Part shown: one piece after another, positions 21,001 through 27,000 of the stretch | Layout of the letters: each line of letters starts with the position of its first letter | How positions within the stretch are numbered: position 1 is the stretch's first letter | Assembly (NCBI GenBank): GCA_965223415.1 | Contig: OZ245002.1 | Span: 960,001-1,024,000 of the forward strand | Source of the DNA: Myxococcota bacterium | GTDB taxonomy: Bacteria; Myxococcota_A; UBA9160; UBA6930 | Length of the DNA: 64,000 nt | Reading direction: 5' to 3' | Program-made: the position numbers

Positions 21001-24000
21001 AGGACCGGCAGCCAGGGACGCTCGCTCACCTGGACCAGCAGGTCCGCGAGCAGGGCCTCGGCGTCGCGGGGTCGGAGGGGCTCGGAGCTTCCCGCGGCCT
21101 CCTCGAGCCGCTCGAGCACGGGAGCGAAGCCTTCCTCGAGGAGCCCCAGCAGGAGCCCCCTCCGAGAGCCGAAGTAGTAAGGGACCATCGCGGGGGTCAC
21201 CTCGGCCCGGCCGGCGATCCCGCGGAAGGAGAGCGCGTCCGGCCCGTCCTCCAGGATCGCCTCGGCGGCCGCCCGGAGCAGGGCGGCCCGGACCCGGACG
21301 CCTCCTTTCGGACCGCGGCGGCCGGCTTGCAGCTCGGGCATCGCTGGAGTTTAATTCACTATTGAAATAAATACCAGCGTCCGTAGGAGACCTCCCGTGA
21401 GCAACACCCGCCTCGCCCACCTCCGCGCGATCCTGATCCTTCCCTTCAACGTCCTCGTGGTGATCCCCACGCTCATCGCGTGGCTCGCCCGCGACCCGGT
21501 GGCGGTGGCCGGGGTCGCGGACCTCCGGCTGTGGGGTGGGCTCGCCTGCCTCGTCGCCGGGGTCGGGCTCATGGCCTGGACCATCGGGCGCTTCTTCCAG
21601 GAAGGGGACGGAACCCTCGCTCCCTGGGACCCGACCCAGCACCTGGTGGTCGCCGGCGTCTACCGCCACGTGCGCAACCCGATGATCACCGGAGTCGTGC
21701 TCAACCTGGTCGGCGAGACGCTCGTCCTGGCCTCGCCGGGCATCGGCCTGTGGGCCGCCCTCTTCTTCGCCGGCAACGCCCTCTACATCCCCCTCGTCGA
21801 AGAGCCGGGCCTCGAGAAGCGCTTCGGCGAGGACTACCGACGCTACCGCGCCGCCGTTCCCCGCTGGCTACCCCGCCTGCGCCCCTGGACCCCCTAGCCT
21901 GTCGCGTTGGGGACCGGTTCCGCTTGTTGGGCCGCGGGGTCCAAGGCTTGGCTTCGGTGGCGTGGGCGGGCGGAGCCGAAGACCGCGAGTCCGAGGATGC
22001 CGCTGGCCAGCATCCACCTGGCGGAGGGCGCGGGCAACGGGGTTGTCGGCCCGCGGGCGGGGGCGACAACGAGGTTGTCGCCCGCTCAGCCCGTCTCTAC
22101 CCGGGGCGGGAGCGCGGCGCGCTCCTCGAGGCAGCCGTAGGCGGTCGGCGTGAGCTTGATCAGGGTGTGGAGCGGCATCTCCAGGTGGGGCGTCTCTTCG
22201 ATGGGCAGCTGGCGGAAGTAGGCGACCATCGCCCGCAGCACGGCGCGATGGGCGATCACCAGCACCGGCGTGCGATAGCGCTCGAGCTCGATCAGGACGC
22301 GATCGATGCGGTGGATCACGTCCAGATAGGACTCACCGCGCGGATAGCGGTAGGCGAGCTTGTCCTTCTTGCGCGCGGCGAACTCGCCGGGCATCGAGCG
22401 TTCGATCTCGGTGTAGGTCATGCCGTCGCAGGCGCCGGCCTGGATCTCGTCGAGGGCCTTCCACGACCCCGCCTCCACGCCGAGGGGCGCGGCCGTCTGG
22501 AGCGTGCGGCGCAGCGTGCTGGTCCACACGTCCAGATCCCCCTCGGGCGGGAACACCTCGCGAACGTGGACCGCCAGGTTGGTGGCGTACTCCTCCCCGG
22601 CCGGAGAGAGGGAGGCGTCGCCGCCGATCCGCCCATCCAGGTTGTAGAGGCTCTGGCCGTGGCGGGTCAGCCAGACCGGGCGCCGGGTCACCTGAAGGTT
22701 CGAGAGGAAGAAGACGACCCGCCCGACGATGTACCCGTAGACCTGGTTGATCACCACCTGCGCCCCGCGATTGCGCAGCCGCAGCCAGGGGCCCTCGTCT
22801 TCCCCCAGGGTCTCGTAGACCCGCTCGTAGTGGGCGATGCGCCGGCGGAAATCCGCCAGGGCGTCGGCCTCGGGCACGCCGCGGTAATCCGGCGAGCGGA
22901 GCTTCGTCTCGCGCAGGTTCGCCTCGATGATGGCCGGATCGTCGTTCACGATCTCGACGAAGAGGAGCTCCACGTCCTCCGCGAGGGCGCGCTCGCGGAT
23001 CCACTGGCGGCGCTCGCGGGTGGAGTTCGTGGCGTCGTAGACGGCGATTCGCCCGGGCCCCCGCAGCCACGCACAGGCCTCGTCCAGGGCCTCGCGGGCC
23101 AGCTCCGCCCGCCGCAGGGAGGCCTCCCGGTTCGCGGGATCGAAGAACTCGTGGGACGGGCCGGTCCCGACGGTGGCCCGACGGTGCTCTCCCACGTTGA
23201 AGGCCAGGGTCGGATACCCGAGCCAGGAGAGGTAGCCGACGAGCTTCCGCGCGGTGAAGGTCTTGCCGCGGGCCGGCAGCCCCACCATGGCGATCAGGTG
23301 CTTTCGCCCGCGCCGGGGCCGGCTCATCTGTCTCCACCCTCCCGGATGCGCAACCCTAGCAGCCGGAGGTGGCACCATGGCGACGATCGGAATCCTGGTG
23401 GGCGGAGGCCCGGCCCCGGGCATCAACGGCGTGATCGGCGCGGCGGCCATCTATGCCCGCCGTCACGGCGCGCGAGTGAAGGGCCTGCTCGACGGCTTCC
23501 GCTGGCTGATGGAAGGCGATGCGAGCAAGGCGACGGACCTGCACATCGGCACCGTCTCCCGCATCCACCTGCTGGGCGGCTCGGTCCTGCAGACCTCGCG
23601 GGCGAATCCGACCAAGAACCCGGAGCACCTGCGGAAGGTGGTCTCCACCCTTCGCGAGCTCGAGATCGATCACCTGGTAACGATCGGCGGGGACGACACC
23701 TGCTACTCGGCGCTGCGCGTCGCCGAGGAGGCCGGTGACGCCATCCGGGTGGCCCACGTTCCGAAGACGATCGACAACGACCTCCCGTTGCCCGAGGGGA
23801 TCCCCACCTTCGGCTTCGAGACGGCGCGCGAGACCGGCGCCACCATCCTGAGCCATCTGATGGAGGACGCGCGCACCACCAGCCGCTGGTACCTCGCGGT
23901 GATGATGGGCCGCTCCGCGGGGCATCTGGCCCTGGGGGCGGCGAAGGCCGCCGGCGCCACCCTGGCCCTCGTCGGAGAGGAGTTCCCGGAGGGACCGATC

Positions 24001-27000
24001 CGGCTCGCCGAGGTCGTGCGGCGCATCGAGGCGTCCATCGTCAAGCGGATCGCCTTCCATCGGCCCTACGGCGTCGCCGTGGTGTCCGAAGGCATCGGCG
24101 AGCGGCTCCACCCGGAGGATCTCGAGCGGCTCCCGGAGCTCCCGCGGGACGATCACGGCCACGTGCGGCTGGCCGAGCTACCCCTGGGGCGCCTCCTGGT
24201 CGACGGTGTGAAGCAGGATCTCGGCGAGCTCGGGCTCTCGATGACGATGGTCGCCAAGGACGTGGGCTACGAGCTTCGCTGCGTGGCTCCGAACGCCTTC
24301 GACGCCGAGTACACCCGGGACCTGGGCGCCGGCGCCGTGCGCTGCCTGCTCGACGGCACCCACAAGGTGATGATCACCCGCGAGGGCAACGGCATCCATC
24401 CGGTGCCGCTCACCGACATCCTCGATCGCCAGACCGGCCGCACCCGCGTGCGCCTGCTCGACGTGACCAGCCCGTCCTACAGCATGGGGCGGGCGCTACA
24501 GGTTCGCCTCGAGCAGGAGGACCTCGAGGATCCCCGGGCGGTGCGGCTCCTGGAAGAGGCCACCGGCCGATCGATCGGCCAGCTCCAGGAGCGATGGGCG
24601 AGCGTGCTCGGAGGCTAGGAGCCGACGCCCGCGGGGCACGTGCGCATTTCGCACGGCTCCACCGACGGTGACGGACGAAAACCACCGGGGCGGTGGCGGC
24701 CGATGCGCACCCAGGTAGTGACGAACGACACGAACGTCGCGGTGACGAACGACACCAACGAAGCGTCCGTCACTGTGACGAGAGTTACTGCGAGCGCCGT
24801 CGGTGAACGTGCGCGCTTCTCGTGTTCCACTCACTTCGACCGGCGGTTCAATCGCGCGTCCATTTTTTTCGTTCGGGACGCGTTTCTTTTTGACCGCGAT
24901 CACGCGTCGACTCTATGATGCGCCTCGTTCGAACGGCCCAAACAGCAGTTGCCGCGGACGCTCCCCCATGCGCGAACCCACGCCCACCGACGGTGGACAG
25001 AGCTTCAAGATCGACGTCGCGCGCATCATCGATGCGAGCTCGCGTCGCGTTGCGGCGGACGAGCTGGGTGGCCAGGTCGTCCGGGTGGTGGACGCCAGTC
25101 GCATCGACGAAGCGATCGCCCGGGCCGTCGATGACGCCTTGCGCGCCCAGGAGACCAAGCTCGGCCGCTCCCTTCGGCGCGAGGTGGGGTTGGAGGCGAG
25201 CCGGCGCTTCGTCGACCTGATGGGCCGGCACCAACGGGCGGAAGAGGAGCGCCGCGAGGCCCATCGAGCCCGCCGGAAGCTGGAGAAGGAGCTGGACGCG
25301 CTGCGCGAGCAGCTCGCCGCGGAGAGAGCCCGGCTCGAGGGCGAGCACACAAAGGCCGCCGAGCGCGCCTTCTCCCTCTCCGACGACGGGCTTCGGGAGC
25401 TCGAGGCGCACCTGCGCCGGATCGTTTGGGGGTTCGTGAGTGACCAAAGGCGGCGGCGAGCGTTGAGCCCCGGAGGGGCGGACCTCCCGGAGCTCGCTGA
25501 GCTCGAGCGGGTGCTCGGACGCGTGCTCCATCGAGTGCTGGTCCGTGAGCGACTCGCCGCCGCCAGGCCCCTGGATCCCCCGAGCTTGCGTGAGCTCGAG
25601 AACCTGACCCACCGGCTCTTCGACCTGCACGAGCGCCTGGGCGTGCAGGAGCGGGAGATCGCGGAGCTCCGTCGGCTCCGCTCGGTGCCGCCCCGCAGCC
25701 CGCGCGGCGCTTCGACGCCGCGCCCCGGGGGCAACGAGAAGCAGGCCGTCCTCGCGGTGATCTTCAACGAGAACCTGAAGCTCCGCGCCCAGTTCCACCA
25801 AGCCAGCTGATCCACAGGATCGAAAGGGAGTCCCTTGACCGAAACGAACCCCGGGCCCGAGGAGGCCCGTCCGCCCGCCGACATCCTCTATCTCGGAATC
25901 GACTTCGGAACCTCGCGAACGTCGATTGCGGCCAGCAACGGCGTCCGGGACACGGTGCTCTCCTACGTCGGCTACCCGAAGGACCACGTGGCCCGAAAGC
26001 TGCTCCAGAAGGACGCGCTCTTCGGGGAGGAGGCCCTGGAGAAGCAGCTGGCCCTCGACTTCTACCGGCCCCTCGCAGGAGGGCAGATCAAGCACTCCGA
26101 GGACGGCGAGCCAATGGACCCGAAGGTCTTCGAGGCCAACACCCGGGCGGCGGGCGAGCTGCTCCGGCACGCCATCAGCCTCGCGGGGGCGGAGGAGGGC
26201 GCAGTGGTCTACGGCGTGCTCGGATCGCCCGCCCAGGCCAGCATCAAGAACAAGAAGGCCCTGCTGGACGCCTGCGCCGGCGCCCTCGACTCGGTGATGC
26301 TCTGCTCGGAGCCCTTCGCCGTCGCCTACGGCATGGATCGCCTGGACGATGTGCTGGTCATCGACATCGGAGCCGGCACGACGGACCTGTGCCGCATGCA
26401 CGGCACGATGCCCGACGAGGCGGACCAGCTCACGATCCCCTTCGCCGGAGACTGGATCGATCGGCAGCTCGCCGAGCTCTTCGCCCGCAAGTGCGCGGGT
26501 GCCGACTTCACGCTCAACATGGTGAAGCAGGCGAAGGAGAAGTTCGCCTTCGTCACCGAGCCCCAGGCCCGGGCGATCGTCGAGTTTCCGGTGAAGGGGA
26601 AGCCGACCCAGTTCGACGTCACCGACGAGATCCGCGAGGGCTGTGGGCGCATCGTGCCCCACATCGTGAAGGGGCTCCAGGAGCTGATCGCCTCCTTCCA
26701 TCCGGAGTTCCAGGCGCGGCTGCGCCAGAACGTGCTGCTCGCTGGGGGAGGCGGGCAGATCATCGGCCTCGACATCGCCATCGAGAGCTACATGCGGGAG
26801 CACCTGGGAGGCGGAAACGTCACCCGGAGCCAGGAGCCCATGTACGGCGGGGCCCACGGTGCCCTGAAGATCGCCTACGACATGCCGGCCGAGTATTGGG
26901 AGCAGCTGAGCACCGGCTAGCCTTACACCGCCGGTGCCGTCGAGCCGGGGCGGGGGCCGAGGGTGAAGTCGATCGAGGACGTGTTTCCGGCGCGCTCCGG

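Follow-up and report, generated by a model that had tools for sequence, protein, structure and literature searches.

A divergent gene pair of a PFK-2/FBPase-2 homologue and a PPi-type phosphofructokinase in a Myxococcota bacterium, and its possible place in a fructose-2,6-bisphosphate circuit

Structure of the divergent locus

The DNA analysed here (the window) is a stretch of 64,000 nucleotides from a Myxococcota bacterium whose genome comprises 5.83 Mb in one contig and is 97% complete. A homologue of the bifunctional enzyme PFK-2/FBPase-2 (PFKFB) and a PPi-type phosphofructokinase (PFK) lie head to head in it, with the following features:

22086..23327, minus strand: PFK-2/FBPase-2 (PFKFB) homologue, P0001 (g00909); 413 aa, a bare catalytic core without regulatory extensions
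23328..23376, no strand: divergent intergenic region of 49 bp, holding both Shine-Dalgarno-like runs
23346..23361, plus strand: conserved intergenic block ATGCG..ACCCTAGCA, a candidate shared promoter/operator kept in seven of seven genus-level loci
23377..24618, plus strand: short PPi-type 6-phosphofructokinase, P0002 (g00910); 413 aa, the sole PFK-superfamily gene of the genome

The minus-strand ORF of P0001 spans 22086-23450 and its homologue-matched ATG lies at 23327. The plus-strand ORF of P0002 spans 23254-24618 with a homologue-supported ATG at 23377. The divergent pair is real, and the two starts are separated by 49 bp as the genome-wide survey's note had described.

A complete PFK-2/FBPase-2 homologue

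P0001 is the single PF01591 match in the whole genome. It contains a 6PF2K domain (PF01591, 1.3e-62, residues 7-214) and a His_Phos_1 domain (PF00300, 1.9e-35). Among proteins of solved structure it matches human PFKFB3, PFKFB2 and rat testis PFKFB best, with E values between 3.5e-110 and 1e-102 across residues 11-403. The alignment with the PFKFB3 structure 6ibz (E 3.5e-110) retains the Walker A motif GLPARGKT at residues 16-23 as well as the phosphatase residues, which are RHG 222-224 (R222-H223-G224), Glu294 and the second histidine, His360. The catalytic roles of Glu294 and His360 are presumably those of the PFKFB enzymes. Among 102 family representatives there are 61 columns conserved at 90% or more, Walker A and the RHG histidine included, and P0001 is identical at all 61. 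It is also 50% identical to named eukaryotic representatives from a plant (P0133) and Acytostelium (P0125). The phospho-acceptor of these enzymes is the RHG histidine, and fungal isoforms that lose it become monofunctional (PMC9721465). Judged by its sequence, P0001 is a full PFK-2/FBPase-2 protein in which nothing catalytic has been lost. The survey's description of a full bifunctional member with kinase P-loop and phosphatase RHG is borne out in the domains, the translation and the alignments.

Animal PFKFB1-4 (6ibz, 2axn, 5htk, 1bif, 1k6m) share the two-domain order with P0001 (E about 1e-110 over residues 11-403). They differ in having N- and C-terminal extensions with phosphorylation sites, whereas the bacterial protein, known from its sequence, is the 413-aa core only. 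P0001 is part of a large bacterial PFKFB clade centred on Myxococcota.

P0001 most likely produces fructose-2,6-bisphosphate (Fru-2,6-P2) from ATP and F6P and also hydrolyses it again to F6P. It could instead leave Fru-2,6-P2 aside and both phosphorylate and dephosphorylate another sugar phosphate, or work mainly as a phosphatase; a literature search of limited scope found no assayed bacterial family member, and some automatic annotations of relatives read 'broad specificity phosphatase PhoE/predicted kinase'. This we consider very unlikely, because all strongly conserved columns of the eukaryotic enzymes are retained and P0001 shares 45-53% identity over both domains with enzymes whose specificity is proven. 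In addition, the F6P-binding residues of PFKFB3, which we take to be R74, R98, T126, R132, R189 and Y193, are matched six out of six in P0001 (R49, R73, T100, R106, R163, Y167).

The neighbouring phosphofructokinase

P0002 matches the Pfam PFK family (PF00365, 2.7e-49). The NCBIfam model for PPi-PFK of the Thermotogales type (NF041103) gives 543.7 bits, slightly short of its 550-bit cut-off, and the second-best model reaches 179.8 bits. The whole genome contains no further PF00365 match. It does encode four kinases of the PfkB family, a different superfamily that could supply an ATP-PFK; the earlier description of P0002 as the only phosphofructokinase is right for PF00365 and may not be right for the activity.

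The closest solved relative is the PPi-PFK of Trichomonas vaginalis (9dqm, E 2.2e-107). By alignment with it P0002 carries GGDD at 104-107, the KTID lysine K130 and D133. GGDD and the KTID lysine, found in both proteins, are the PPi-type determinants of the phosphoryl donor according to a preprint on the T. vaginalis enzyme (10.64898/2026.03.28.715000), so the PPi-type signature reported by the survey is present. The same text describes a non-catalytic sugar-phosphate site at the dimer interface. It also describes an interface AMP site of putative function, and here the two proteins differ: of the seven residues given there, only two are identical in P0002 (R29, K223), and the adenine-stacking Trp is replaced by Val376.

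The intergenic region

The purine-rich, Shine-Dalgarno-like run of the PFKFB gene lies at 23332-23343, read on the minus strand, and that of the PFK gene (GGAGGTG) at 23365-23371. Two separate promoters would not fit into a 49-bp gap that holds both runs. Between them is the conserved block, a candidate for shared control. It was defined by aligning this locus with those of six genus relatives, whose gaps measure 63-97 bp; the invariant columns of this alignment (A2, seven loci) within the block are T40, G41, G43, A46, C47, T50, A51, G52 and C53. Neither a sigma-70 consensus site nor a terminator was found within 22900-23800.

Phylogenetic reach of the pairing

A full-length PFKFB orthologue occurs in 20 of the 33 genomes of the family, the same count that the survey had obtained. 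The PFK gene adjoins it in 14 of these 20 loci. This corresponds to 13 of 19 relatives and replaces the earlier figure of 10 of 11. All 14 paired loci belong to two genera, g1 (6/6) and g11 (8/8), and beyond the family the pair is found only in one MAG, G146, from another family. Across the order it is present in 15 of the 27 PFKFB-bearing genomes, with gaps of 49-281 bp. The other twelve have no pair, and in two of them, G070 and G114, a PPi-type PFK is missing altogether. The arrangement is absent from four further genera of this family and from about 65 more PFKFB loci of bacteria; of the best 80 GTDB loci 13 show it, every one from the lineages just named. That the pairing is kept in relatives is therefore correct insofar as it recurs, but it is confined to g1, g11 and G146.

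On the PFKFB tree, clades with the pair are interspersed with clades that lack it. Either the pairing arose three times or it was kept in three lineages with at least three losses. On the PFK tree the enzyme of G146 clusters with its counterparts in G144 and G147, which are congeners without PFKFB. This fits the arrival of PFKFB beside a resident PFK, but the contig of G146 measures just 3.3 kb and is possibly mis-binned.

The adjacency could be functionally meaningless, a lineage-specific rearrangement of two housekeeping genes, with PFKFB acting elsewhere or only on FBPase. Its absence from the unpaired genera and loci and the variable intergenic length would agree with this. So would the neighbours of bacterial PFKFB genes otherwise, which are an unrelated assortment: among 277 ORFs across the 80 loci, none was another glycolytic or gluconeogenic gene. 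A chance arrangement nevertheless seems to us rather unlikely, given the same divergent layout in three clades with unpaired ones between them, the grouping of the G146 PFK (with the above caution on its contig) and the identity of the partner, which is the one enzyme acting on PFKFB's own substrate.

Co-occurrence with class I FBPase

The genome has one class I FBPase, P0122, outside the window (G000:C1:3512953-3514017; PF00316, 7.2e-57), which matches human and pig FBP1 (E 1.3e-87). No GlpX-type FBPase was found in the genome, and a single H+-PPase is present.

Within the order, class I FBPase is encoded by 24 of the 27 genomes with PFKFB versus 17 of the 166 others. Counted by genus, it is present in 11 of 13 with PFKFB versus 11 of 61 without. 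In family f10 the sole PFKFB genome among 44, G070, is also the sole one with class I FBPase, and genus g2 has neither gene in any of its four genomes. In a sample of the phylum, PFKFB occurs in 81 of 401 genomes, and class I FBPase in 73 of these 81 versus 138 of the other 320. Exceptions are found on both sides. Class I FBPase is missing from three PFKFB genomes of the order, namely G050 and G146 at 96% completeness each and G028 at 83%, and from eight of the phylum sample, including all three of genus g134. Seven genomes of the family have the FBPase without PFKFB. Kinship confounds the co-occurrence, as a PFK tree of 75 leaves has only 6 changes of state for PFKFB and 9 for FBPase; an independent-pairs test on the PFK tree, which controls for kinship, has 3 supported pairs (p = 1) and is without power. 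Co-occurrence suggests that class I FBPase, which the survey had touched on only briefly, is a better partner of PFKFB than PPi-PFK.

PPi-PFK is the standard enzyme of the order, found in about 158 of 193 genomes whether or not these carry PFKFB. Because it is present in about 133 of the 166 PFKFB-less genomes, it is independent of Fru-2,6-P2. In the other orders of the phylum PFKFB accompanies PFKs that score like canonical PfkA.

A working model of regulation at the F6P/FBP node

Class I FBPase is the textbook target inhibited by Fru-2,6-P2. In mammalian and Leishmania class I FBPases the inhibition is competitive, at the active site, with a Ki of 0.2-1.9 uM (PMC5639204). The survey had argued that this bacterium regulates glycolysis and gluconeogenesis through Fru-2,6-P2. 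Given the co-occurrence and the known target, such control of the F6P/FBP node stays plausible; the proposal that PPi-PFK is the receptor draws on adjacency and is the weaker part.

The best-supported working model, to which we give a probability of roughly one half, resembles the circuit of the plant cytosol: the signal would act on FBPase, and expression would be shared with PPi-PFK. Fru-2,6-P2 would competitively inhibit the irreversible class I FBPase, and FBPase and the reversible PPi-PFK would so be kept from running jointly as a PPi-wasting cycle. Transcription from the shared 49-bp region would keep the quantity of the signal enzyme in step with that of PFK. The three enzyme types of the plant circuit (F2KP, PFP and class I FBPase) occur together in this genome. 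The plant F2KP (P0133, 753 aa) differs in its long N-terminal region with CBM20, which P0001 lacks, and plant PFP is a long-form enzyme whereas this genome has a single short PFK gene.

Direct activation of PPi-PFK by Fru-2,6-P2 is possible as the weaker limb of this model. That it should be the main control point, with the neighbouring enzyme allosterically activated like plant PFP, is doubtful. The divergent adjacency in three lineages interleaved with unpaired ones speaks for it, as does the sugar-phosphate-binding interface site of the closest solved homologue. Position 285 of PFK also agrees: it is hydrophobic in 23 of 25 PFKFB genomes, while four of the five members of this PFK subclade that lack PFKFB have Arg or Gln there. 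Most of the discriminating positions point elsewhere. Those that best separate PFKFB genomes from the others are common to the PFKFB-less G002, G004, G015, G130 and G033 and missing from the PFKFB-bearing G050, and are thus mainly clade signal. Further evidence against it comes from the unpaired genomes, G070 and G114 among them, from the many PFKFB-less genomes with an orthologous PPi-PFK, and from the PfkA-like partners elsewhere in the phylum. Plant PFP is an alpha/beta heteromer of catalytic and regulatory PFK-family subunits. With a single PF00365 match in the genome, no second PFK-family subunit was found, and the regulatory alpha subunit of plants is thus lacking. Plant PPi-PFKs are activated by Fru-2,6-P2, but none of the PPi-PFKs characterised from bacteria to date is allosteric, as a 2025 review states (PMC12203962).

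A full Fru-2,6-P2 circuit, in which PFKFB would set the signal, class I FBPase would be shut and PPi-PFK would be activated through the sugar-phosphate pocket at the dimer interface, is unlikely. If true, the enzyme would be the first PPi-PFK of a bacterium under allosteric control, and a mechanism still called eukaryote-specific in 2026 would gain its first working case in a prokaryote. The ancestor of the eukaryotic system would then have a candidate relative in the Myxococcota clade. Bacterial PFKFB homologues were reportedly noted in print already by Michels and Rigden in 2006; what is new here is the link of PFKFB to the PPi-PFK/FBPase node.

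The PFKFB and PPi-PFK genes form a divergent pair

A PFKFB (PFK-2/FBPase-2) homologue divergent from, and 49 bp away from, the only PFK-family gene of the genome had been reported in the genome-wide survey's note. The open reading frames, the profile matches and a search of the genome bear this out. The G+C content of the window is about 70%, and the pair is laid out as follows.

22086-23450, minus strand: open reading frame of P0001, the PFKFB homologue; an ATG at 23327, chosen by the length of the homologues (412-419 aa), gives 413 aa (22086-23327)
23328-23376, between the divergent start codons: intergenic gap of 49 bp
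23254-24618, plus strand: open reading frame of P0002, the PPi-dependent phosphofructokinase (PPi-PFK); a homologue-supported ATG at 23377 gives 413 aa

Both start codons are preceded by a purine-rich Shine-Dalgarno-like run and, because they are 49 bp apart, there is no space for two separate promoters. A block within the gap (23346-23361) is kept in all seven loci of the window's genus. A consensus scan of 22900-23800, which is uninformative for Myxococcota promoters, found no sigma-70-type site or terminator. A search of sequencing runs found no RNA run that covers the locus.

On the 3' side of PFKFB (19348-21897) lie a PEMT-like methyltransferase and a TetR regulator and then a GST-like gene; in three other genomes of the genus (loci L049-L051) a hexapeptide-repeat transferase is found there instead. 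The genes 3' of PFKFB thus differ within the genus, so this far flank is not conserved and the PFK side is. Beyond the PFK, three genes lie in 24803-28345: one for a 335-aa protein that matches no Pfam family, one for an MreB/ParM-like actin (PF06723, 1.1e-11) and one for an AAA_22 ATPase whose long tail is rich in proline and alanine. These three genes may be a cytoskeletal or partition-like module.

P0001 is a predicted bifunctional catalytic core

P0001 matches the Pfam families 6PF2K (residues 7-214, 1.3e-62) and His_Phos_1 (residues 218-399, 1.9e-35). It passes no NCBIfam model, the best match being a phosphatase-only model far below its cut-off. Among solved structures the best match is human PFKFB3 (E 3.5e-110), followed by PFKFB2 and the rat testis and human liver enzymes, and each of these alignments spans residues 11-403. 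In the structure-match alignment the Walker A motif GLPARGKT (16-23), R222-H223-G224, E294 and H360 fall on the catalytic positions of PFKFB3. The histidine of the RHG motif is described as the phospho-acceptor, whose replacement gives the monofunctional fungal isoforms (PMC9721465).

Conservation was assessed with representatives of protein clusters from a library of 1.84 billion proteins. The best 150 of 1122 clusters at E <= 1e-30 were considered, and 48 of the 150 representatives were dropped for having no full-length match in one stretch. Among the remaining 102, 61 columns reach 90% conservation or more, and P0001 is identical at all 61. The protein is a bare catalytic core, beginning 10 residues ahead of the Walker A loop and finishing shortly after the phosphatase domain; it differs from the animal PFKFB isozymes in being without their regulatory tails. 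P0001 is almost certainly an intact member of the PFKFB family, and we put the probability that it handles Fru-2,6-P2 at about 0.7.

The gene itself is of a known kind and already annotated. Regulation by Fru-2,6-P2 is taught as a eukaryote-only feature. Bacterial PFKFB homologues have been known from sequence for about 20 years and, to our knowledge, no hypothesis of a target has been offered. A 2026 preprint still calls this regulation eukaryote-only and cites Michels and Rigden 2006 (PMC12873801). The literature searched held no study of a bacterial PFKFB, and no description of its conserved head-to-head pairing with a PPi-PFK or of its near-nesting within genomes that have a class I FBPase.

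P0002 is a PPi-type phosphofructokinase

P0002 matches the Pfam PFK family (2.7e-49). Of the NCBIfam models, the PPi-PFK equivalog of Thermotogales type scores best by a wide margin, with 543.7 bits where the cut-off is 550. Among solved structures P0002 comes closest to the Trichomonas vaginalis PPi-PFK (9dqm, E 2.2e-107). GGDD is present at 104-107 and the KTID lysine is K130; these are described as PPi-specific and catalytic motifs in a preprint on the T. vaginalis enzyme, which also describes a second, non-catalytic sugar-phosphate site beside the AMP site (10.64898/2026.03.28.715000). This second site is a possible lead and no evidence of regulation. The gene had been called the only phosphofructokinase of the organism. 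It is indeed the single PF00365 match in the 5.83-Mb single-contig genome, and a protein query likewise found one copy. However, the genome carries four PfkB-family kinases, a superfamily unrelated to PFK, and an ATP-PFK of that superfamily is possible. A membrane H+-PPase is also encoded.

PFKFB is widespread in the phylum and paired with PFK in few lineages

The close homologues of P0001 are named as MAGs of 'Myxococcota bacterium' or 'Deltaproteobacteria bacterium'. A full-length orthologue is present in 20 of the 33 genomes of the family, as counted earlier. PFKFB occurs in 27/193 genomes and 13/74 genera of the order, and in an even sample of the phylum in 81/401 genomes and 52/254 genera, including 28/29 genomes of one family. 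A pattern scan of the GTDB species genomes gave 334 loci, one of which (L102) comes from a cultured myxobacterium, Byssovorax cruenta JCM 12614. PFKFB is therefore rare across bacteria at large and ordinary in this phylum.

The pairing is narrower. Searches with tblastn placed a PFK divergently adjacent to PFKFB in 14 of the 20 loci of the family. These are every genome of the window's genus (six) and every genome of genus g11 that has PFKFB (eight). The pair is missing from genera g5, g8, g9 and g10, in which the PPi-PFK is far away or on another contig; the earlier statement that relatives keep the pairing is accurate for the first two genera but not for these four. In the rest of the order there is one more paired genome, G146 of another family, on a contig of only 3.3 kb for which mis-binning is possible. 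This brings the order to 15 paired genomes of the 27 with PFKFB. Among the best 80 of the 334 GTDB loci the pair is found in 13, all from these same lineages. At one further locus (L085) a 28%-identical PFK lies 5 kb from PFKFB, and the remaining loci have no PFK within up to 6 kb. The start codons are separated by 49, 63 (four loci), 67 and 97 bp in the window's genus, by about 89-281 bp in g11 and by about 135 bp in G146.

The PFKFB protein tree has a 25-leaf clade (support 0.988) that holds every paired locus. Paired and unpaired leaves are interleaved there, so the pairing either arose three times or was inherited from an ancestor and disrupted on three or more occasions. The PFK of G146 groups with the enzymes of its PFKFB-less congeners in the PFK tree, which fits the arrival of PFKFB beside a resident PFK in that genome.

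Two neighbours per side were considered for the best 80 of the 334 loci (277 open reading frames), and no glycolytic or gluconeogenic gene besides PFK was found. These frames come from a GC3-based caller, which missed the PFK of L051 that tblastn found. A Ser/Thr protein kinase (Pkinase) lies at most two genes from PFKFB in 10 of the 80 loci, of Polyangiales type (L080, L082, L086, L087, L096, L097, L098, L107, L123 and L124). Eukaryotic PFKFBs are controlled by phosphorylation. Because myxobacteria encode very many Ser/Thr protein kinases, this proximity may be chance or shared synteny. Six Polyangiaceae-type loci (L085, L086, L092, L097, L098 and L113) share tryptophan 2,3-dioxygenase as the divergent gene upstream of PFKFB.

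The PPi-PFK does not depend on PFKFB

About 158 of the 193 genomes of the order have a match to P0002 of orthologue grade (E <= 1e-94, 52-85% identity): 25/27 with PFKFB versus about 133/166 without it. The presence of the PPi-PFK does not require PFKFB. In the phylum sample 389/401 genomes have a PFK-family gene; Pfam PFK scores are 1e-90 to 1e-110 in other orders, like canonical PfkA, versus 1e-45 to 1e-57 for the PPi type of this order. Most PFKFB genes of the phylum sit in those other orders with PfkA-like PFKs, and therefore PFKFB is not tied to PPi-PFKs.

Residues of the PFK were compared across 75 aligned PPi-PFKs of the order, 25 from PFKFB genomes and 50 from PFKFB-less genomes that were picked by hand, not at random. 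Position 57 is the best discriminator in the whole protein (Ile in 24/25 versus 5/50) and aligns with Tyr65 of the interface AMP site of the T. vaginalis enzyme (9dqm). Three more positions of this site, 28, 29 and 376, are also among the high-ranking ones. This signature was considered as an adaptation to PFKFB. It is present in the PFKFB-less genomes G002, G004, G015, G130 and G033 and absent from the PFKFB-bearing G050, and is therefore read as a clade signature. The sole position that tracks PFKFB within the subclade is 285, which is hydrophobic in 23/25 PFKFB genomes and Arg or Gln in 4/5 PFKFB-less subclade members; it may offer a weak lead to adaptation.

Class I FBPase is the better partner by co-occurrence

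Few genomes of the order (41/193) have a class I FBPase (PF00316), and the enzyme is concentrated in those with PFKFB.

Genomes or genera with class I FBPase, by presence of PFKFB
Order, genomes: with PFKFB 24/27; without PFKFB 17/166
Order, genera: with PFKFB 11/13; without PFKFB 11/61
Phylum sample, genomes: with PFKFB 73/81; without PFKFB 138/320

By co-occurrence class I FBPase is a better partner of PFKFB than PPi-PFK is. In family f10 the sole genome of 44 with class I FBPase is also the sole one with PFKFB (G070), and genus g2 of the window's family has neither gene in its four genomes. The discordance runs both ways: seven FBPase genomes of the window's family are without PFKFB, and the PFKFB genomes of the order without FBPase are G028 (83% complete), G050 and G146 (both 96%). 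Of the eight such genomes in the phylum sample, three belong to one genus. These counts need caution because kin share traits. The 75-leaf PFK tree has six state changes for PFKFB and nine for FBPase, and an independent-pairs test controlling for kinship on this tree had no power (3 supported pairs, p = 1).

The class I FBPase of the window's genome (P0122, encoded outside the window at G000:C1:3512953-3514017) gives E 1.3e-87 against FBP1 of human and pig, and no GlpX-type FBPase was found in the genome. The FBPase of E. coli is inhibited by Fru-2,6-P2; no published report on that enzyme with Fru-2,6-P2 was found in the literature searched. Fru-2,6-P2 is described as a competitive inhibitor that binds the active site of class I FBPases, with a Ki of 0.2-0.5 uM in mammals and 1.9 uM in Leishmania (PMC5639204).

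The g2 genomes (G001-G004) have two or three PFK-like matches each instead of one, perhaps an alternative way of handling this metabolic node. G070 carries FBPase in a second copy and lacks a PPi-type PFK. One of its contigs (locus L192, G070:C210) carries transketolase, 6-phosphogluconate dehydrogenase and class I FBPase at 14046-18495, a tkt-gnd-fbp operon in a row cut off by the contig end. PFKFB is 13 kb from this second FBPase copy on the same contig, too far to count as linkage. Two PFKFB-bearing genomes of the phylum sample, from another family (f67), each have class I FBPase and a PfkA-like PFK on one contig, 4 kb (G490:C65) and 11 kb (G512:C101) apart.

A candidate circuit

A circuit resembling the one in the plant cytosol is the most economical model. 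In most of the order the reversible PPi-PFK alone would handle both directions of the F6P/FBP step. The addition of an irreversible class I FBPase would bring the risk of a PPi-wasting cycle, and the lineages so placed would be those with PFKFB. Fru-2,6-P2 would keep the FBPase off while carbon runs down glycolysis, and with the head-to-head placement the signal enzyme would be made in step with the PFK. That class I FBPase is a target of Fru-2,6-P2 has, in our estimate, slightly less than an even chance. The PPi-PFK is an unlikely target; its direct activation is a possibility based on adjacency and analogy. The survey had proposed from the pairing that glycolysis and gluconeogenesis are regulated through Fru-2,6-P2. 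The pair on which this was built is real, and co-occurrence points more to the FBPase than to the PPi-PFK as a target.

Taken together, the pairing and the FBPase nesting yield the first hypothesis on a target of Fru-2,6-P2 in bacteria that is both concrete and testable. A response of either enzyme to Fru-2,6-P2 would reveal a bacterial metabolite switch that resembles a second messenger, would make clear why an irreversible FBPase is affordable next to a reversible PPi-PFK, and would bear on the source of the eukaryotic circuit. If neither the FBPase nor the PPi-PFK responds, the PFKFB gene is an ordinary conserved enzyme whose substrate is not known.

Relationship to the eukaryotic enzymes

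In a FastTree phylogeny of 189 sequences, with the 48 representatives that had no full-length match in one stretch left out of the 150, all but one of the 87 bacterial-labelled sequences fall together in a clade with support 0.956. Support at the deep nodes is 0.0-0.24, which would fit transfer in either direction between bacteria and eukaryotes. Four of ten representatives that were looked up had names, and the named ones near this clade include a plant, a dictyostelid, a transcript from a marine protist and a second group of Myxococcota. The top-scoring cluster representative, P0123, is a 1069-aa protein from an MMETSP transcript of a marine protist. It has two PFKFB-like stretches and is apparently a tandem duplication of the entire bifunctional core.
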